Shown piece after piece: positions 52,448 through 64,000 of a DNA stretch of 64,000 bases (position 1 is its first letter; each line of letters starts with the position of its first letter). A model generated the notes under the pieces. It had not been told where the DNA came from and did no database searches. It saw only the letters and a program-made list of their open reading frames with translations. Position numbers and translations under genes: made by a program. The stretch is from contig OZ287085.1 in the NCBI GenBank assembly GCA_965645245.1, forward strand, positions 1-64,000, given 5' to 3'. The stretch is from Massalongia carnosa. Its lineage: Eukaryota.

Positions 52448-52921
52448 TAGTTCGACTGTGTTCAGCACCGCTGAGTCATCAGGCTTAGTAATAACCAGCC
52501 TTATACGGCGGCGCTGTAACAGAATATTTGAGACTTATATCGAATTAACAGCATCGAAGGACACGCAGACTTTGTGTCTCTTATTGATGATTTTATCAGA
52601 AAATTCTGACTTATTTTTTTGAAGTCTTGACGAAGATTTATCAGAAAATAAGCGAATGATAGACGACAGTTGATCGTCAATCAGATGAAAAGATAGTAAT
52701 ATATCAGTCACGGTGCGAAGTCAAAGCTGGTGGCTGCGCAAGGAAAACATTGTTTTGAAAGACGTCAAAATGTCAGTTGATAATTTCATGTTCCTGAATA
52801 ATGTCCTAGAATGATACCGTAATGTTTACTAGTAGTTCCCCCATTTCTCTACACAGAGTCTTTTGGGTTAATGTCATGATAATTATTCTTTATGCTCTAT
52901 CAACTTGTATAACGCTATCGA

Positions 52922-54129
52922 CGAAACAATCGGGTGCACTGATCAGGATCTCCGCGTCCACATGGGGAGCCTAGTTCTCGAAGGCCAGACAGGTTTATAT
53001 TGCGGTCGTTCGTCCGGCAATGATCTACGCATCCGCCGTATGGCACACACCGAAAGAAATAGGAAAAGCAAAGCCGCGACGAACAAGCTGGCGGTCATGC
53101 AAAACAAGTGCTTGCGAGCAATAACGGGTGCATTTCGGGCCACCCCGATTCCAGTATTAGAAACCGAAACGCACGTGACGTCTATAGAATCGCATTTGGA
53201 AGAATTACAAGTCAAAGCGAGATATCGCCAACGAACCGCGGGGCAAACGAGACTCATCTCGTCTTTCTGCAAGGAGATAGAACGCAAGTTGCGCGGAAAA
53301 GCGGGCAAGAAAAGATCGCCGAAACCGACCCAGGAATGCTCAAGCACGAATGGGCCAAAAACACAGTGATCAGCGCCATACCCACGGCAGCCCCAACGCC
53401 GCACCCACCCTGGATCACGCCTACGGAGCAACACATGCTAACAGCCAATGCAGTAAGGATGAGTCGCAGCGCTCACACGAAAGCCACAAAAGCGCATTAC
53501 AAAACGAATGGCAGACAACCTGGAAAGCATATCAAGATCGCGTACCCTTTCCCACCGAAGCACAGCGCGCTTCCTTAACCAAAGGAAGAATCAAAATACA
53601 CGACAATCTGGCAAAAGCGGAAAGCGCGTTAGCTACCCAAATTCGCACGGAAAAAATAGGTCTGGCAAGTTTTCTATTTAAACGACGAGTTCCCAACGTG
53701 ACGACCGCGGCCTGCAGCTGTGGTTGGCCCCAGCAAACGGCCAAACACGTAATCATGCACTGCCCATTAATGACGGGAAGACAAGAGCTGTTTCGGCGTA
53801 TAAATACCAACGAGTATCGTACGATACTCGAAACATCCAAAACATTGAAACAGGTAACGAGATGGATTATCGAAGCTGGCGTTTTGGCGCAATTTTCTTT
53901 ATCGGCAAGCTTGCTATACAAGCAATAATTTTCTTTTCATTCAAGGGACTCATCGAAAAAGCACACGAGCAGCACAGCTAGAGGTCGTTGGGACCTCGTA
54001 CGCGCAGCGTTGGCAATGGGTTTTTATTCCTCTTAAAGGTTTTCCTGTAGCATAGTAGTCTATCCCGCATGGGCCGGCCTTCGGCCGGTGACATATCGGC
54101 GTAAGCTTATATCTATCTATCTATCTATC
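52922..54129 (+). mobile_element. 5'-truncated Tad-like LINE (ORF2 C-terminus, 3' UTR, (TATC)n tail)
   Basis: QNKCLRAITGAFRATP, QIRTEKIGL, CSCG...TAKHVIMHC zinc finger; TATC tail at 54110-54130; 15-16-bp TSD (T)GTATAACGCTATCGA at 52906-52921 and 54130-54145. Confidence 0.92.
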
Positions 54130-54138
54130 TGTATAACG

Positions 54139-54279
54139 CTATCGAAAGGATAGGTGATCCTTATTACTTCTAGTTATCTTAACCCCGTCTATGGCCGTTC
54201 TGTTTGTGTGACCTATAATCACACCTCGATTGTTATCGATTTTGTCCCTAAATTTAACATCGCCCATACGAACCGAATG
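54139..54279 (-). pseudogene. Detached last exon of the SesB-like gene, encoding a candidate amyloid signalling motif
   Basis: Removing Copia 3 joins this stretch to the putative intron after ...SEEDRQ. It reads HSVRMGDVKFRDKIDNNRGVIIGHTNRTAIDGVKITRSNKDHLSFR*. The splice acceptor appears mutated. Confidence 0.6.
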
Positions 54280-54289
54280 TTTATGTTGG

Positions 54290-57200
54290 TGTTAACCGAT
54301 TAGACCACACTAATTGGCAGGTGGCCTGCCAATATCACCACTAATAGAAGTGTCACTCGGTTAGCAAGTGTTGCACTTAGTGAATAGCTGGCTACCGAGT
54401 ACGCACAAAAGGTGATGGGATAAGATAAAATAGATATTTAGCTAGAGATGATTTCTATCATCAACAACCATCCTAGATAAACCAGATCAATTTATCAAAT
54501 CCAAAACGAGTCTCCTTTAGAACGTAAACCTACCTAACAAATAAGCTGGAAAGCTTACGCATATCTAAGCGATAACCAGCTTGATAGTTATGAGCCCGGC
54601 ATCGCATCCCTCGTTCTAAAGAGCTCACAGTCAACCAAAGCAAGGCAGATAAATCGAGAAGATAGCAAAACGGGCAAGATCAAAAGTCCCTGCATCTAAA
54701 CTCGCATATCTGCATCACCTCGCATAAAAAAGAAATAAAAGCCAATCATGAGCTCCACACGGAAGATAGTGCTCGGTAAACCAGCAGATTGGGATACCTG
54801 GTTCTCATTCGTTCGGACTCGGGCAACAAATAGTGGGATCTGGAACCTAGTAAACCCAGAGACTACACCAAAGCCGTTAGATGTTCTACCGCCAATCAAA
54901 CCGGTATTCATCCTACCAATAGATCCAAGCACATACGACCCAGTAGCCTATGAAGTCTTCAAAGTACAAACACATATCTACAAACTGCAGTTGGGGGAGT
55001 ATGAAAAACAGCAAAAGGCGTACGCTGATCTTATCACGTTTATTCAAGAGACTGTGACAGTTCAGAACGCAACCTATATTCATAAAGTAGATGCTCATCC
55101 ATGGAACCTCCTTCGAGCCTTGAAAGAACGGTTGGCACCAAGCGACGAGGCTCGCTCGATCGAGATAGAGAACTAATATCACAAGCTTTGCAATTGACCT
55201 GGCAAGCAAGATATGAAAACATGGATTGAAGAATGGCAGACGGTGTATGCCGAGGGAAAAGCATACGGAATCAGTGAAGTCTCAGGAACACGACCTATTC
55301 GTGATTTCATTATGGCTATTCTCACCAAAGAGGCTGCGTTTGCTAACACTTATCTGATTGGTTTAAAGAATCGGAGAGAAGAAGAATTCTACGAAATAGT
55401 GGAGGAATTTCGCAGTTATATTCGAATGCATCAAACGCAAAAGATCGATCAAAACACGCATTCAGCCTTTGCATCCGAGAAAAAGAAGGAAGGACAAGGG
55501 CAAGGAGCGACATTCAATGGGCAAAAAACACCCGATCCATGTCTTTGCGGGATGACTCACTGGTATAACAACTGCTACTATCTACTACCAGAGAAACGAT
55601 CCTCAAACTGGTCTCCAAACCCTGCCACCCAAGCTCAAGTTAATGAGAAGATGAAAGATCCACAAACAAAAGCTAGGGTGGAAAGACTTCTTCAACGTTC
55701 CAAGCAAATGGATTTAAAAAAGGATAGAAACAATAAAAAGGCTACTGAGGAGAAGGAGCTCGGAACGTTTACATCGATAAAAACCGCATCATCCTTCTCA
55801 GCAGATAGCTACACGATCGGAGATTCATGGAAATTGGATAACGGGTCTAACAGCCACGTGTGCAATAGCACCATGAAAGAAAGATATCAATATCAACGAA
55901 ACGCCGATGGAGAGTATCTTATTGCTGGCACACAACGCCTAGCAATAGAGAGCTATGGCACAATAAACATAACTGTGCCAACTTCATCCGGTCCCAAATC
56001 CATGACTCTGTCAAACGTCGCATATGTTTCAGATTTCATGACTAATTTAGTCTCTCAAGATTTGCTCTATATCAAAGGGGTGTATTTTGATAATTGGAAA
56101 CTTCATCTTCATAGAGATGGAACTTCTATTGCTTACGTTAAACGCCACAACGGGCATTATCTCATGGAGGACAACACAGCAAAACAAGTATCAGCTTTTC
56201 CAGTTAAGAAGACGGAACTGGCTAACATCAAGACCGAAACAGCGCAGAAATGGCATCAAATATTAGCACATGTCTCGAATGAAGCTATACAGCATCTCGA
56301 GACATCCGCTAAGGGGGTGAAAATATCTAATGAGGAAGTTCCTAAGACAAATGAATGCGAGCCTTGTGCATTATCTAAAGCACATCGTATCGTATCTCGA
56401 TCATCGAAAAATGCAGAATCATCAAAAGAGCCTTTTTATCGCATCACATATGATCTCATGCAGCTCAACACTGCTATGAATAAAGATGAATGGGTCTCTC
56501 ATTTCGCATGCCATGCAACCGATTTTAATATGGTATTTACCCACGCTCACAAATCTGATGCTGCTAGGATAGTCAAAGAAGCTGTCAATATTATCGAGAC
56601 TCGCTTTAAATCAAAGGTAGTATTTATTCGATCAGACGGAGAATGTTCATTGGAAAATGAGTTCAAAGATCTGCTGATTGAGAAAGGCATTACCTATGAA
56701 TCATCAACACCCGATACCCCGGAGCAAAACGGCCACTCTGAACGAAAGGGAGGTATATTGGCCATGAAAGCTCGGGCAATGAGAATCGACGCTGGCCTAC
56801 CAATCTATCTTTGGCCAGAAATCGTGCGCACCGCGGATTATATAGCTAATCGAACACCTATGAGAAAGCATCAATGGAAGACTCCGTATGAGCTTGTCAT
56901 AGGAAATCCACCCGATCTAAGTCATCTTCGCCAGTATGGGTGCAAAGCCTACACTTTAAATAAGCAAATTCCAAACAAACAAAAGCTACAAGAGCGTGCA
57001 CATATCGGTCATCTCGTGGGCTATGAAGCAAGGAATATCTTTCGGGTTTGGATACCTAGTCAACGAAAGATTATTCGCACAAGAGACGTGATGTTTGACG
57101 AAAGCACAAGCTACGATGCTCATGATATTGATTTGTTGCAAGCAATCAAAGAACCAATGCTAGAAACAACCTACGAGCTTCATGATCTGGATCCTATCAC

Positions 57201-59623
57201 ACAAATCACGGAAATAGACTCTGATGAAGGAGAAGGAGAGGGAGATCACACACAAAACATAGGGGAAAATGTTGAAAGCATGGAATCGCAAGATTGGAAT
57301 GTGCAGGAATTGGTCTCTTCACAAATGAAAGAGAGAACTTACCTTCCAACACCAACCCCATCCGAATCATTCACAAAAAACACGAAAGCAAAGAAAGCTG
57401 CTAAACGAAAAGCATCAAAAGATATCAACTCCAGTCTCGATACGAATAATATCTTGCCTGAGGGGGTGGGAAGACGCCGCATATCCAATCAACGAAAGGA
57501 AACGTACGCAACAGTGTTAGCAGATGCTAATAACGGCGAGTTAAATTCTTATCATGCTGAATTCTCAGCCCACATCATGGCAAGTTCTTATTACATCACC
57601 AATAAAGAATATAGCAAAGAATCTAGCAAAAATAACACGCTGATTCTAAGCACCCGGTTTCATAGAGATAGCCTACCTCCCGAACCTGAACATTATCGTC
57701 AAATGCTAAAGCACCCGCATGCAGAAGGCTTCAAGCTAGCCATGAAGGTAGAGGTTCAGGCCCTTATTGCTAAGAATACCTGGACTGAAGTCGGACACGA
57801 AGCAGCTGTTATTGCTGGCAAAAAACCGATACCAACGAGATGGGTATTCAAATATAAATTCGATGAAAAAGGCTATCTAGTCAAATACAAATCAAGATTA
57901 TGCGCTAGTGGTGATCTTCAACGCAACGAGCAAGATACATTCGCAGCAACATTGGCTGCACGAATTTTTCGAGCGTTAATGGCAATCTTAGCAGCATTTG
58001 ATCTCGAAATACGGCATTACGATGCGGTAAATGCATTCGCAAATAGCCCTATTGATGAACCAACCTACTGTAGGTTACCTGAAGGGTGGCCTGGGTCAGC
58101 ATCTGGAGCTGTTAATATTCTACTATTGCTATTGCGAGCATTGTACGGTCTAAAGCAATCACCGGCCCTATGGTATCGGAATTTATCAGAGGCTCTCATA
58201 GAATTGAACCTTGAACCAATCTCGGGAGTGGACTGCCTCTTTATCAGCCAGGATAGTCATATACTGCTATTCTTCTTCGTGGACGATATCGTTCTGCTTT
58301 ATGATCGGCGGTATACCGATCAAGTAGACCAGTTTCAAGATCTATTATTCCAGAAATATGAGATGCGATATTTAGGACCACTAGAATGGTTTTTGGGTAT
58401 TCGCATTCAAAGAGAAAGAAGTGTTAGAAAGCTCTGGCTATCTCAGGAATCCTATATCGAAAAATTGATAGCTAAGTTCAACATCAATATAAATACCGAT
58501 ATCACTAAACGAGCGAGAGACTCGCCATTACAAACAGAAGAATTAACGAAAAATCCTTCTACAGCTACACCACAGGAAATCCATTCTAATCAACAGCGAG
58601 TAGGTTCATTGAACTTTGCCGCAGTCATTACCAGGCCAGATGTGGCCCAATCAGCTTCTAAACTATCAGAATTCCTAACCAACCTATCCAAACACCATAT
58701 GGATTGCGTCAATCGTACTCTCAAACATCTGGCACATACAAAACATCTATCTATTGTGTTCAGTTCGAGAGCTAATCCACAAACCATCTTCCTAGCAAGC
58801 AGCGATGCCTCATTTGCTGACGATACGATTACTAGATATAGCTCTCAGGGATACGCATTTAAACTCTACAACGGAATGATAGATTGGAAAGCTTCCAAAC
58901 AGAGGACTGTAACGACCAGCTCCACTGAAGCCGAATTACTAGCTATATCTGCAGCAGGCAAGGAGCTAATCTGGTGGACTCGATTTTTCCAATCCATCCA
59001 TCTGGAGTTGAATCATATCACTAGCATTCAATGTGATAATATGCAGACCATAAGAGCACTAACCACCAATCGATTAATTACCAAACTGAGGCATGTAGAT
59101 ATTCACAAACACTGGCTAAGACAGGAGATCGCTCTCGGAAAGATAAGCATAGAATGGGTATCAACCACCAACATTCTAGCTGACGGATTAACCAAATCAC
59201 TACCACCTCAACGTCATAAAGAGTTCGTGAGGCTACTCGGCCTCGGGGGTGCGGAGAATGACAATACTAAAGAGGTTGATAAAGATCTTCTCCATAGAGA
59301 AGAAGAAGATCTTCACCAAGGGGGTGTGTTAACCGATTAGGCCACACTAATTGGTAGGTGGCCTGCCAATATCACCACGAATAGAAGTGTCACTCGGTTA
59401 GCAAGTGTTGCACTTAGTGAATGGCTGGCTACCGAGTACGCACAAAAGGTGATGGGATAAGATAAAATAGATATTTAGCTAGAGATGATTTCTATCATCA
59501 ACAACCATCCTAGATAAACCAGATCAATTTATCAAATCCAAAACGAGTCTCCTTTAGAACGTAAACCTACCTAACAAATAAGCTGGAAAGCTTACGCATA
59601 TCTAAGCGATAACCAGCTTGATA
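54290..59623 (+). mobile_element. Ty1/Copia LTR retrotransposon 3, full length
   Basis: 297-bp LTRs (54290-54586, 59327-59623); TSD GTTGG; PBS GTTATGAGCCC; gag-pol 54748-59340 with two in-frame stops near 55174 and 55196; RT FFVDD. Confidence 0.96.
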
Positions 59624-59628
59624 GTTGG

Positions 59629-60668
59629 GTTTCAGCTGATTTCAAGCGCACGAAAGAGATGTCAGACCTGGCGATCCTCTTCAGATCCCTTGGATCGACT
59701 ATCAAGATCCGATATCCATTGAGCCAACTTTTGCGAAATTCTCTTGTATCCCTCTCGGTCTTCATCCTCAAACTTGCACATATCAACATGGTTCGCTTGG
59801 ATTGACTGTGAATCGATACCAGGCAGGCAAGCCGATTCCTTGAGCACGATAAATCCCATCTTCGTCCCTCCCTTATACATAGCATACTGTTCAAAGAAAC
59901 AAGCTACTTCCACAAACTCTCTTGATTCTGATCGATCCCGTGCTTTCAGGAATTTCTGGAAAGCTTCGTTAACGCTGATGAGCTTTGCCGAACGCTCTTC
60001 AAGACCCTTTACATCCTGCTTATGCGTGGTGCTTATCCAGCCCAGTATCTGTAGAGTCCTGCTTCCCCATTTTGCTTTTGACAATCCCTCAAAGGGCGTT
60101 CCTAGGAAGACGACTCCAATCGTTCTCTCTACGAGGGTAGTGCTAGACATGTCAGTGCCATTGTGCCTTGACAGCGCAATGGCGCACACGAGACCCCCTA
60201 GGCTGTGCGAGACGAAAATAATCGGTCGTTCAGCCTGGACATAGACATCCTATTAGCATATTTCTGGTGGAAAGGTAGGGGTGCGCCGATTCCTACAGTT
60301 TTGGCTTTCTCGCGGAGACCGATTAGGCCCTGGAACATTGCAGCCGCGTGATCATCAATAGTCAAATGCTCCGGGATGAATTTCGGTCCAACAAACGGAT
60401 AGAAGTGAGCAAAGTCCGCATTGTACCCAAAAGAAGGATGCGAGCTGTTGGGCAGGCTTGAGATAAGAGATCTTGCGGCCACAACAGCGATCTATCTCGA
60501 CCCTCCCATGTCCAAGTTTTCACTCTGTCGCCGTCGAGCCCGTGGACGAAGACAATACTGTTTGGTCAGTACAGAGCAACCCGGACAAGAAATGACATCT
60601 GGTGCGTACTCTATATTCGCCTCTGGAGAAGCAAAGAGGGGGTCGCCTAATCCGTACGGTTCGGCCAT
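59629..60668 (-). pseudogene. SesB-like alpha/beta-hydrolase (lipase-like) NLR-effector gene
   Basis: ATG at 60668; GT-AG introns at 60558-60609 and ~60235-60297; DIVFVHGL, WPQDLL, FGYNAD, PIIFVSHSLGGLV, GVVFLGTPFEG, ANHVDMCKF. 1-nt frameshift near 60433; last intron interrupted by Copia 3. Confidence 0.85.
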
Positions 60669-61302
60669 GCTAGCGTTGTCATCGCAATACTACAGAGGAG
60701 TCGTGCTTCAAATTTAGCACTATAACTTATGCGAGATAATCGTGATGCCGCCTGCATGGAGAGACCAGACGCTTCAGCACGTGCATAGCCTTGGCTCTAT
60801 TAGCCATCTATCCCGCATGATGGCGGGGTGCCCTCCATCGGCGAGTCCGTACCTATATTTATACTTAGAGATGAACAGTGCCTTTGGGAAGTCTTGGGCG
60901 TTGACTTTCTGACCGAACCTATGTGCGGTCCTGAGCACGGTAAAGATAAGAGTTTTCAGTCTTTTTCAATATAGCCTATAGCTCTAACGTCTACAATCTT
61001 CTGACACAGCAATGGCCGGTAACACGCTAGCAGTCTCTACAGGCGCGAAGTATTTTGGCACCATTTCTGGCAACAAAGGCGCTGTGGTCGGTGAAGTCTC
61101 AGGCCATGCAAAAGTGATTGGTCTGGGTCCTGTTCACATCGATATTGATCTTATGCTAAATCCTGATTAGGCTCTCAGATATACAATATTGCTCAATATC
61201 CAGGCAAGTCGGCATTCGCAATGATATAGCGTTCTGTGAGCCAAGGCTGATAGCATTCTGCGTTTGTAGAAAGACCCGATACCCCACCAAGCCCATCATC
61301 TA

Positions 61303-61718
61303 TGTTGAGGATAGCCGAGATGTCTGCTTATAGAAAATGGCACTAACCCCAATGCGCACTAGCTATTGGAAGTATTTGGATTGGCCACCTTGGGATTTAT
61401 CATCAACATCCCGCGTCTGATATTCTAGGAGACATTCGAACATTCTACAGTGGATTGATAATGAGGCAAATATGTCAGCTTTGGAACTCCGACAAAGACG
61501 AGCTTACATATCAGCATTTGACTGACCGATCACATAGAAAGTGGGAGAATCGTGCTCAAGGCAGGCAGCGGTATATAATGGGCTATATGCCCCCATAGAT
61601 AGCCTCAGTCATTTTCAATCAATCATTAGTAGCCTGCCATTGGATCAGCTTGATCATCGCACGTACTTTTTGCTGTTGTTTCCTACTTCCACCCCTATAA
61701 TCCGTAGCCTCCGCAACA
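61303..61718. mobile_element. Solo LTR (416 bp) inserted in NLR exon 3
   Basis: TGTTG...CAACA termini and a perfect TSD ATCTA; removing it restores PPSPSSTVPFRRD. Confidence 0.92.
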
Positions 61719-63189
61719 ATCTACTGTTCCTTTCCGCCGCGACTCTGATTTCGTCGATCGCGGAAAGCTACTTGATCAGATACACGAAAAGTGCTCCGCG
61801 CCAGCGTCAAGGGTAGCGCTTGTCGGCCTAGGCGGCGTTGGGTAAGCCAAAGGGCCTCAGGCTAGTTCTAATAGCTTACTTTCGCAAAGAAAGTCGCAGC
61901 TTGCCATCGAATACTGCTATCGAATCAGAGAGCAGTTGCCGGCGACGTGGGTTTTCTGGATACACGCCAGCAACGCAGCCCGTATCGAGCAAGGTTATAG
62001 AAAGATTGCAGAGCAAGTCAAGATTCCTGGCAGGGGGGACCCAAAGGCGGACATATTCCGGCTAGTTAAAAAGTGGTTATGCGACGAGAAGAACGGAAAG
62101 TGGGCTCTGGTTCTCGACAATGCCGACGAAACTACTGTGCTGTTCGAAACTCTTGTCACGGGCCAGAAGGCGCAGGCCAGCGGGTCTAGCGGCGGGCCCA
62201 CGCAATCACTGTTAGCATATCTACCTCAGAGCCGAAACGGCTCGATTCTCGTCACCACCCGGACTAAAAGTGTGGCATTGCGGCTAGCGGAAGAAAGTGA
62301 CATAATACCGATTGAGCCGATGAATCATACCCATGCGCTAACGCTTCTTGAAAAGAAGCTGGGAGAAAAGATCGATAGAGAAGATACTTCTGAGCTAGCA
62401 GTAGCACTTGAATTTATGCCGCTTGCCATTGTTCAAGCGGCTGCATACATTCGACTAAGAGTACCAAGATATTCTGTACGACAGTACGTAGATGAGTTCC
62501 ATAAGAATGATAAAAAAAAGACTAGTCTCTTGAATCACGAAGCGGGACATCTTCGCAGGGACCAGGAGGCTAAAAACTCGATCATTATAACCTGGCAAAT
62601 ATCGTTTGATCATATTCATCAGACTAGGCCTTCGGCGGCTAATCTGCTGTCGCTTATGAGCTTTTTCGATCGACAGGGAATTCCTGAGGCTTTACTCAAG
62701 AAACAAAACGAAGGGGAAAATGAAAATACAGCCGAAGCTGCTGGAGATGACGAAGATGATGACCACAAAGACGATAGCGATGGGGATATCGTAACCTATC
62801 TCAGCGTCGATAAGTTTGAAGACAACATACTTATCTTGAGAGACTATTCGTTCATCACCATCAGCATGGATGGAACTACCTTTGAGATGCACGGGCTAGT
62901 GCAGCTAGCCATCAGAAAGTGGCTAGAAGCATCCAATCAGCTCGAAAGATGGAAGCAGCAGTACATCAAGAATCTCTGTACAGTATTTCCGAATGGAGAT
63001 TACGAGAATTGGACAAAGTGTCAAGCACTTTTTCCTCACGCAAAGTTGGCAGTAGCGCAGCAGCCAGCTGTCGAAAGCTCATTACAAGATTGGGCCTTGA
63101 TACTATATCACGCTGCGTGGTATGCGTGTGCGAAAGGGAGTTACTTTGAAGCAGCGACAATGGCCTTAAAAGCAACAATAACCAGGCAA

Positions 63190-64000
63190 AAATTGCTGGG
63201 TCTAGAGGATGAAAAGACATTGGAAAGTATGGCTATGCTAGCCACGGCATACAGCAATGGAGGGCGACGAAAGGAGGCAGAAAAGCTGGAGGTGCAAGTG
63301 ATGAAGACGAGAAAGAGGGTGCTAGGGACGGAGCATCCTTCCACGCTGATCAGCATGGGCAACCTTGCATCGACGTATTGGAAGCAAGGACGCTGGACGG
63401 AGGCCGAAGAGCTGGAGGTGCAAGTGATGGAGACGAGAAAGAGGGTGCTAGGGACGGAGCATCCAGACACGCTGACCAGCATGGGCAACCTTGCGTCGAC
63501 GTACGGGAATCAAGGACGATGGACGGAGGCCGAAGAGCTGGAGGTGCAAGTGCTGGAGACGAGAAAGAGGGTGCTAGGGACGGAGCATCCAGACACGCTG
63601 GCCAGCATGAACAACCTTGCGTTGACGTATTGGAATCAAGGACAATGGACGGAGGCCGAAGAGCTGGGGGTGCAAGTGATGAAGACGAGAAAGAGGGTGC
63701 TAGGGACGGAGCATCCAGACACGCTGACCAGCATGGGCAACCTTGCGTCGACGTATTGGAATCAAGGACGATGGACGGAGGCCAAAGAGCTGGAGGTGCA
63801 AGTGATGGAGACGAGTGCGAGGTTGCTAGGGACGGAGCATCCTTCCACGCTGACCAGCATGAGCAACCTTGCGTCGACGTACGGGAATCAAGGACGATGG
63901 ACGGAGGCCGAAGAGCTGGAGGTGCAAGTGATGAAGACGAGAAAGAGGGTGCTAGGGACGGAGCATCCTTCCACGCTGACCAGCATGAACAACCTTGCGT
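63190..64000 (+). repeat. Highly conserved 126-bp TPR repeat array of the NLR
   Basis: GGGACGGAGCATCC recurs every 126 nt. Unit ~LGTEHP[SD]TL[ITA]SM[GNS]NLASTY[WG]NQGRWTEAEELEVQVM[EK]TRKRV. Confidence 0.93.

Follow-up and report, generated by a model that had tools for sequence, protein, structure and literature searches.

The distal part of a 64,000-nucleotide stretch of DNA from Massalongia carnosa (GenBank assembly GCA_965645245.1, contig OZ287085.1, positions 1 to 64,000 of the forward strand; the whole stretch is called the window below) carries a SesB-like lipase gene on the minus strand and, on the plus strand, a gene for a nucleotide-binding oligomerisation domain (NOD)-like receptor (NLR) of NB-ARC/TPR type. 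The two genes are divergent, and their start codons, at 60668 (-) and 61012 (+), are separated by exactly 343 bp (60669..61011). We consider it probable that this locus belongs to a conserved fungal family of divergent lipase/NLR modules, in which receptor and effector share a variant of the PP/RHIM-class motif, and that the copy in the window is dead. From its sequence and that of its homologues, we read the shared motif as a PP-class variant that has so far gone unrecognised.

On the receptor side the motif stands alone on the first NLR exon (61012..61120, +), which is an open reading frame (ORF) in the DNA, encodes the protein start MAGNTLAVSTGAKYFGTISGNKGAVVGEVSGHAKVIG and is 81% identical to the N-terminus of the homologue P0035. 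On the effector side it lies in the tail exon of the lipase (54139..54282, -), which reads KHSVRMGDVKF...ITRSNKDHLSFR and then a stop. This exon is supported by the ORF at 54139-54291 (-), which contains GDVKFRDKIDNNRGVIIGHTNRTAIDGVKITRSN, by a match to the tail hidden Markov model (HMM) at E 4e-15 and by 64% identity to the tail of the lipase homologue P0002; alignments to homologous tails place the motif itself at 54163..54264 (-), with the core NNRGVIIG intact. An initial annotation of the window, made from the letters alone, had described two head-to-head genes 343 bp apart and a receptor with a short N-terminus in place of a folded domain, and both descriptions are borne out: MAGNT...KVIG constitutes exon 1, and SQIYN follows after a 50-nt intron. 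The tail peptide quoted there is present in the DNA as given, but the ORF runs seven codons further (KDHLSFR) past ..ITRSN before the stop. The pattern that had been drawn through the two peptides fits both of them by reading.

The tail is a regular feature of homologous lipases. Of the 28 longer homologues of the lipase core that were listed, 23 were retrieved and the tails of 21 (P0002-P0022) were aligned; they come from Pleosporales and other Dothideomycetes, Aspergillus, Penicillium, Xylariales and Leotiomycetes. All but the most divergent, P0021, align to HSVxMGDVNFxDKIxNNxGVVMGHAYxTAxDGVRIxGS, after which comes a stretch rich in aromatic residues. The strict core N-x-G-φ-[VIMFAL]-φ-G, where φ is a hydrophobic residue, is found in 15 of 22 tails when the window's is included. 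The Xylariales tails P0013-P0016 fail it only through an asparagine displaced by one position, the P0017 tail has Q at the centre (GVQAG), and in the P0020 tail the asparagine is missing. Since intact homologues carry the tail, the earlier proposal that the lipase gains a last exon once a Copia element is excised stands, and comparison of the sequences indicates that the tail exon is a genuine part of the lipase gene. In P0027-P0029 the lipase domain is fused with NACHT and ankyrin domains, which gives an all-in-one architecture.

On the receptor side, four of the best 120 NB-ARC relatives carry the full motif (P0035, P0101, P0135 and P0149) and P0050 carries part of it; together these five come from Lobaria immixta, Lindgomyces ingoldianus (two), Dendryphion nanum and Patellaria atrata. 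A search of 1.84 billion representatives with an NLR-motif profile built from seven sequences (A2) returned 29 proteins at E<=0.001, 13 of them at E<=1e-10. Most of the matches are ORFs of 43-105 amino acids, which match over residues 1-37 and diverge directly after ..VIG; they are evidently the first exon read on into the intron. The full NLRs among the 29 are P0172 (NB-ARC/TPR) and P0162 (NACHT with C-terminal ankyrin-like repeats, assigned by sequence reading), so the motif occurs on both NB-ARC/TPR and NACHT/ANK receptors, and one match, P0168, is an unrelated repeat protein of 1949 amino acids. A word-index search with the NLR N-terminus gave a single match, P0001, and the motif exon is usually skipped or read through in gene calls. 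The motif-exon copies P0170, P0173, P0175 and P0176 are degenerate, P0175 having D at several conserved G positions, which suggests that decayed copies of the NLR motif exist in other genomes too.

The two motifs are related to each other. Alignment of the NLR-motif profile (A4) with the lipase-tail profile (A3) by hhalign gave a probability of 88.7% (E 2.5e-6) along ..I-x-x-N-x-G-V-V-x-G-x-x-x-x-A, and a local hhalign comparison of the NLR motif with the lipase tail scored 21.8, compared with 11.6-11.7 for reversed controls. Cross-species NLR/tail pairs reached Smith-Waterman scores of up to 64, with none of 500 shuffles as high.

Pairs of the two motifs also recur. Among 80 metagenome loci with a lipase homologue, 75 have a tail ORF together with upstream minus-strand ORFs, and in 15 of these 75 the cognate upstream ORF matches its own tail at a score of at least 46, a level that no more than 4 of 74 non-cognate loci attain. 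Six of the 15 are hydrophobic-centred pairs (L003, L010, L014, L015, L016 and L033, where L015 and L016 are near-copies) and six are Q-centred, classical PP pairs (L022, L036, L039, L044, L047 and L053). Weaker candidates below this cut are L001, where an NLR-motif HMM match (E 6e-20) lies some 260 bp away from the start of the lipase, L011 and L017 (Smith-Waterman 37 and 42), L021 (by eye) and L032 (NLR-motif HMM E 0.014). The head-to-head arrangement of lipase and motif is seen in L001, L003, L010, L014, L021 and L033 as well, and Pfam domains are found 3' of the motif exon in L003 (NACHT and ANK), L014 and L021 (NACHT) and L011 (NB-ARC). In Aspergillus nanangensis a lipase (P0009, KAF9893431.1) and a motif-bearing NLR (P0162, KAF9893432.1) have consecutive accessions and lie on equal-sized contigs. 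Receptor and effector motifs further co-vary: over seven pairs the summed cognate score was 343, and 8 of 20000 random pairings were as good. The proposed module, an NLR and an effector that share a terminal motif, is thus strengthened by pairs that recur head-to-head at other loci and co-vary, and the co-occurrence of the motif at NLR N-termini and lipase C-termini elsewhere was found in metagenome contigs and in A. nanangensis.

The remaining three of the 15 pairs (L037, L038 and L066) have other motifs, neither Q-centred nor hydrophobic-centred, for instance ..KVINQAGKDINIGSQSF beside ..LVINKAGENISVG; by their sequences, they could represent further motif variants carried by this effector family.

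It is hardly credible that the likeness of the window's two peptides is a chance resemblance of low-complexity sequences. They have few identical positions, and taken by itself the window pair reaches p ~0.004 (Smith-Waterman 34, against 18.9 +/- 3.8 for shuffles, with 19 of 5000 as high), but the conservation in homologues, the recurring pairs and the co-variation contradict this explanation.

Several points weigh against the reading of the locus as a member of a conserved module family. The similarity between the window's own two peptides is modest, as the score of 34 and the 19 of 5000 shuffles indicate. With HMMER, the tail profile matched the 120 NLRs marginally (best E 0.084), and P0035 and P0135 were missed. 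The cognate partner was the best of its row in only 4 of 7 rows of the seven-pair matrix, and 60 of the 75 metagenome loci have no clear cognate match, many of those contigs being short; the contigs of L001, L010, L032 and L033 end too early to show a NOD domain. The presumed adjacency in A. nanangensis follows from accession order and not from coordinates, and the motif NLRs that were found in Lindgomyces ingoldianus and Dendryphion nanum lie on contigs whose length differs from that of the lipase contig, so they are not adjacent to the lipase there. The amyloid behaviour of the motif is, in addition, presumed by analogy with known modules.

As to the class of the motif, A2, A3 and A4 show no variation in the asparagine two residues before the first core glycine or in the two core glycines themselves, and in an alignment to PP N-termini the glycine spacing is the same as in PP. 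The core N-x-G-φ-[VIMFAL]-φ-G is present in 30 of 34 NLR copies, and the central residue is V, I, M or F instead of Q; the Q-centred core G-φ-Q-φ-G occurs in 0/34 NLR copies and 1/22 lipase tails. The motif extends over about 35-40 amino acids, with conserved flanks (..TGAKxF.. upstream and [RK]-[VI]-x-G downstream). In Pfam no family was matched at E<=10 by the window peptides, and none at E<=5 by the N-termini of P0101 and P0149 or by P0002 and P0017, while the control P0037 matched PF17046 at E 7.2e-6; this family is named "Ses_B" and represents the PP motif, and it is called misnamed in PMC12261475. Against the PP profile hhalign gave probabilities of 13-30%, with scores above those of reversed controls (17.5 for the lipase-tail profile, 12.1 reversed).

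The signatures of the other known classes were not found in the 34 NLR copies and 22 tails. The threefold sigma submotifs GxGxQF and GGTQN gave 0/34 and 0/22, with no PF17106 match to the window peptides. The HRAM signature R/K-h-x-h-G-N/D, which belongs to a 21-amino-acid unit doubled on the effector, as a regular expression simplified from the description in PMC4518210, gave 0/34 and 0/22, with no PF11558 match. The PUASM pattern FxGxGxQxxGxGxF likewise gave 0/34 and 0/22, and the effector here is a lipase and not PNP_UDP. The suggestion of an undescribed motif family in the initial annotation is only partly borne out: a PP/RHIM core with V or I in place of Q, matched by none of the Pfam PP, sigma and HET-s models, is what we find, but this is better read as a PP-class variant.

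Most close NB-ARC relatives of the window NLR carry PP, FGDxNxG[LF]Q[AV]G... In a tree of the NB-ARC domains of 55 NLRs with short N-termini (sequences with no called start, no Walker A match or an N-terminus above 130 amino acids were excluded), six rows with the hydrophobic-centred (V-type) motif are scattered among 32 PP rows, a distribution that needs five changes, of which at least three are forced by well-supported branches. Since the motif stands on its own exon, this distribution looks like the swap of a discrete module and not like slow drift. Because the motif has the N-x-G-φ-X-φ-G spacing of PP, the P0017 tail has Q and the closest NB-ARC relatives carry PP, sequence comparison places it most plausibly as a variant inside the PP class, outside the described PP family, and not as an unrelated family.

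Zopfia rhizophila has a PP-type NB-ARC/TPR NLR (P0039) and a lipase with a hydrophobic-centred tail (P0019), so both motif types co-exist in a single genome.

Two other placements of the motif have to be weighed against the one just given. In the first, the module would be an ordinary drifted PP module like that of Chaetomium globosum SBP/PNT1, indistinct from the described family. The identical spacing, the profile score above the reversed control and the GVQAG tail of P0017 agree with this, as do the Q-centred pairs that the same scan shows beside lipase homologues (L022, L036, L039, L044 and L053) and the SesB-type lipases with PP tails described in PMC3321046 and PMC7885112. We nevertheless judge it distinctly unlikely, since Q is absent from all 34 NLR copies, whereas the Q-centred pseudopalindrome is called strongly conserved in PMC7885112. 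Moreover, PF17046 catches the control P0037 and no V-type peptide at E<=5-10, the hhalign probability to PP is just 13-30%, the motif has about twice the length of PP with conserved flanks of its own, and it is sharply conserved on NB-ARC lineages that are interleaved with PP ones, with at least three changes forced on the tree.

In the second placement the motif would be a separate amyloid family with its own fold, for example a multi-rung beta-arch of three φ-x-φ-G units, and the likeness to PP would be convergence on an N/G-rich beta-arch. By reading, three such spaced units can be recognised in each partner (VSTG/AVVG/KVIG on the NLR, VRMG/VVMG/RITG on the tails), the profile similarity to PP is weak, no Pfam model of an amyloid signalling motif matches, and P0039 and P0019 co-exist in Zopfia rhizophila. 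Against this stand the core spacing identical to PP, the Q-bearing intermediate P0017, and an effector family and a NOD clade that are the same as for PP, and we regard a separate fold as rather improbable. It is conceivable, though we lean against it, that the hydrophobic-centred motif (N-x-G-φ-V-φ-G, flanked by ..TGAKxF.. and [RK]VIG) constitutes a sixth, self-contained fungal amyloid signalling family that does not cross-seed with PP, so that PP and V-type pathways would run in parallel in one cell. If so, the Q ladder of the RHIM, PP and BASS3 cores would be dispensable for signalling amyloids.

The likeliest function of intact family members would be the templating of a cross-beta fold from NLR to lipase, which we infer because the anatomy and the comparative signals parallel those of NWD2/HET-S, PNT1/HELLP/SBP and het-eN/sesA/sesB. 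Ligand-induced oligomerisation of the NLR would gather the N-terminal motifs, which would then adopt a cross-beta fold; this could template the same fold in the lipase tail, and the templated fold would switch the lipase effector on. The shared motif could instead be a non-amyloid docking or regulatory peptide, such as the interface of a folded heterodimer or a site at which both partners bind a third protein. The cross-beta structure is indeed inferred here, and pairing and co-variation are expected of any direct interaction, but the composition rich in G, N, V/I and S/T, the terminal position and the PP/RHIM spacing parallel known amyloid motifs (PMC4518210, PMC3321046), as do the pairing with an effector domain that is found fused to NLRs too and the aromatic-rich stretch after the motif (PMC4518210, PMC3321046). 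A docking peptide of this kind therefore seems to us very improbable. A complex prediction for the L001 NLR motif and lipase tail, in which alignments were not used, gave a score of 0.00 and weighs neither way.

The remaining anatomy of the lipase gene (all minus strand) was obtained from homologues and from reading of the DNA. Exon 1, MAEPYGLGDPLFASPEANI.. (60610..60668), was located by tblastn with P0002 and P0005 and by DNA reading, and is followed by intron 1 (60558..60609; 52 nt, GT..AG), read from the DNA and supported by a contig of run X5 that joins 60557 to 60610 and omits the 52 nt. Exon 2 (60297..60557) has a 1-nt deletion next to 60433, and the ORFs and tblastn require two frames here, in agreement with DNA reading. 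Intron 2 (60235..60296; 62 nt) was read from the DNA, and homologues run on continuously from ..KTKT to AERP... Exon 3 (59668..60234), ending ..SEEDRQ, contains the alpha/beta-hydrolase core, recognised by identity to P0002 and by weak Pfam matches (DUF676 and Abhydrolase). Exons 1-3, to ..SEEDRQ at 59668, are 87% identical to P0002 over 189 amino acids (tblastn). The GxSxG nucleophile motif is present as GHSLGG, which fits a SesB-like lipase (about 350 amino acids, with a C-terminal extension); the matches to DUF676, Abhydrolase_6 and PGAP1 are weak, at or under the Pfam cut-offs. Intron 3 is split by the Copia element into a 5' part that includes one copy of the target site duplication (TSD) (59624..59667, assigned by comparison with the L001 intron) and a 3' end (54283..54289), which reads ..CAACAT in the DNA where L001 has ..ACAG.

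On the plus strand, NLR intron 1 (61121..61170; 50 nt, GT..AG) was read from the DNA and is read through in ORFs of relatives (P0001 and P0150). Exon 2 (61171..61203), ..SQIYNIAQYP.., was found by tblastn with P0035 and by DNA reading. Intron 2 (61204..61269; 66 nt, GC..AG), likewise from DNA reading and read-through ORFs of relatives, appears to use a GC donor (GCAAGT), as is suggested by the same letters in the read-through ORFs of P0150, P0151, P0166 and P0175. Exon 3 has a left part (61270..61302), RPDTPPSPS.., with the TSD copy ATCTA at 61298-61302, supported by tblastn, translation and a contig joint, and a right part (61719..61841), ..STVPFRRDSDFVDRG...GLGGVG, which contains the Walker A motif and is supported by an ORF and tblastn. 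After intron 3 (61842..61889; 48 nt; DNA reading and tblastn), exon 4 (61890..64000) encodes NB-ARC, DUF7779 and TPR_10 repeats according to Pfam and TRF, and continues past the window end.

At 63273-64000 the TPR_10 repeats form 126-nt tandem units that are 92% alike, with 5.8 copies up to the window end (TRF). Strongly conserved internal repeats are typical of fungal NLRs.

Judged from these sequences, the module in the window is a retrotransposon-disrupted relic in which both genes are non-functional. In the lipase gene sits a Copia long terminal repeat (LTR) retrotransposon of 5334 nt (54290..59623, +), a finding of the initial annotation that our data confirm: its LTRs of about 300 nt (54290-54586 and 59327-59623) are 99% alike, it is flanked by the TSD GTTGG (54285-54289 and 59624-59628), and its gag-pol ORF (55198-59340; 1380 amino acids) is unbroken and contains RVT_2 and gag-pre-integrase domains (Pfam). 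Copia-free joints are found in 4/4 runs (X1, X2, X4 and X5), so that the insertion is polymorphic; the empty-site joints run from 54284 to 59624 in X1 and X5, with 5 ambiguous letters, and from 54288 to 59633 in X2 and X4, with 5 other letters between. The element looks young and is possibly active. The tail exon is in frame +1 relative to the preceding lipase exon and is joined to it via the 46-nt intron that hosts the Copia element. The homologous intron of the metagenome locus L001 likewise measures 46 nt (GTTTGA..ACAG) and lies between ..KRQ and THSVYMGDV; as the window keeps the same 46 nt at the same place once the element is excised, the Copia lies inside lipase intron 3, 2 nt from its 3' end. 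No canonical GT..AG intron in the window links ..EDRQ with the tail exon in the correct frame, and it was the comparison with L001 that settled the junction.

Further lesions are present in the lipase gene. The acceptor of intron 3 is lost in the window, where the intron ends in AT versus AG in L001, and a variant in an X1 contig carries the base that would restore the AG. The 1-nt deletion in exon 2 shifts ..ARIL away from SFGYNADF into a wrong frame and a stop; an extra base behind 60433 is seen in contigs of X1 (4), X2 (1) and X5 (1), while the remaining X1 and X2 depth has the window's deletion. The window's lipase motif is degenerate, with GHTNRTAID and TRSN compared with GHAYSTATD and TGSS in homologues. 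Within this motif, contigs of 4/4 runs have other letters than the window at 54199, 54207 and 54208, and by codon reading the variants at 54199 and 54207 bring back the residues of the homologues. For repeat-induced point mutation as the cause of the degeneracy of the lipase tail, the evidence was too thin to claim it.

The NLR gene is interrupted by a solo LTR of 416 nt (61303..61718, +; TGTTG...CAACA) in exon 3, which is the exon lying between the motif and the NB-ARC domain, with the second copy of its TSD, ATCTA, at 61719-61723. Together with the TSD it adds 421 nt, which is not a multiple of 3, and it introduces in-frame stops; its flanks, RPDTPPSPS.. and ..STVPFRRD, share one frame, as in P0035. 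A joint without the solo LTR (61297 to 61719) is found in 3/4 runs, in contigs of X1 (2), X2 (1) and X4 (2). The solo LTR belongs to a family other than the Copia element, and no second copy of it is present elsewhere in the window, but an X2 contig that starts at 61303 at about 3-fold depth indicates that it is repeated elsewhere in that sample. Both partners of one module have hence been knocked out by LTR retrotransposons, and insertion-free forms persist in other samples.

At the distal side of the lipase tail, contigs of 4/4 runs lose their match left of 54063/54064, just beyond a (GATA)n run at 54103-54138, and these loose ends are probably the boundary of a further insertion or rearrangement. 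The last small lipase exon of L001 (..NTYNG..) was not found in the window, and the ORFs at 52872-53928 (+) have no Pfam match. A third motif gene in the window was considered; the sole candidate is a 20-amino-acid ORF at 52789-52848 (-), ..SKHYGIILGHYSGT, with E 0.016-0.086 to both motif profiles, which has no gene support around it and was judged to be probably a chance match.

Five families of fungal NLR amyloid motifs are known according to PMC12261475 (HRAM, sigma, PP and PUASM 1-2). The strings of the present motif do not occur in the main texts of the literature searched or in the table supplements of PMC9815663, whose FASTA and HMM supplements, which may bear on novelty, lay outside the search. 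In S1 Table of PMC9815663, a census from 2022, RDL34715.1 is listed as an NB-ARC TPR protein with an unannotated N-terminus and 'noasm'. This accession adjoins that of the lipase P0020 (RDL34716.1), and by the near-identical metagenome locus L011, and not by its own sequence, RDL34715.1 would carry the motif. If it does, amyloid-signalling NLRs are probably undercounted at present. The motif NLR34 of Wojciechowski 2022 was considered as the same motif and rejected: 25/25 of its rows are from Tuber, Fusarium, Lomentospora or Pyrrhoderma, those of Fusarium and Pyrrhoderma being annotated as NACHT and those of Tuber and Lomentospora having no NOD annotation. The G-φ-Q-φ-G core links PP to RHIM of animals and BASS3 of bacteria, and the receptor side described here never has the Q. 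Conserved, co-varying pairs without Q thus offer a natural test of the need for glutamine in signalling amyloids and of the insulation between parallel pathways.

The module can be compared with several known systems. With HET-S/NWD2 and the HRAM families it would share the templating of an effector C-terminus by an NLR N-terminus, and an aromatic-rich stretch follows the motif in both, but the effector here is a lipase and not HeLo, and the HRAM signature was not found. The sigma motif of sesA/sesB/het-eN in Nectria haematococca offers a SesB lipase effector clustered with an NLR and a shared terminal motif of about 40 amino acids (PMC3321046), whereas its GxGxQF and GGTQN submotifs are absent here. 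RHIM and BASS3 are considered homologues of PP (PMC12261475, PMC7885112), and when RHIM (RIPK1/RIPK3 and others) and bacterial BASS3 are set beside the present motif by description, they have the same G-φ-X-φ-G tetrad core with N/G flanks, although they are defined by Q in the tetrad. From the PP modules (PNT1/HELLP/SBP in Chaetomium globosum and HELLP/PNT1 in Podospora anserina) the present one differs in the replacement of the central Q by V/I/M/F, in the downstream pseudopalindrome half G-x-N, which is not kept, in a length of about 37 amino acids compared with 17-18 for PP, in giving no match to PF17046, and in a HeLo-like third partner not being seen in the window. It resembles them in the placing of a SesB-like lipase beside an NB-ARC/TPR NLR, in a motif placed at the C-terminus of the effector and at the N-terminus of the NLR, and in the identical spacing of the core glycines.

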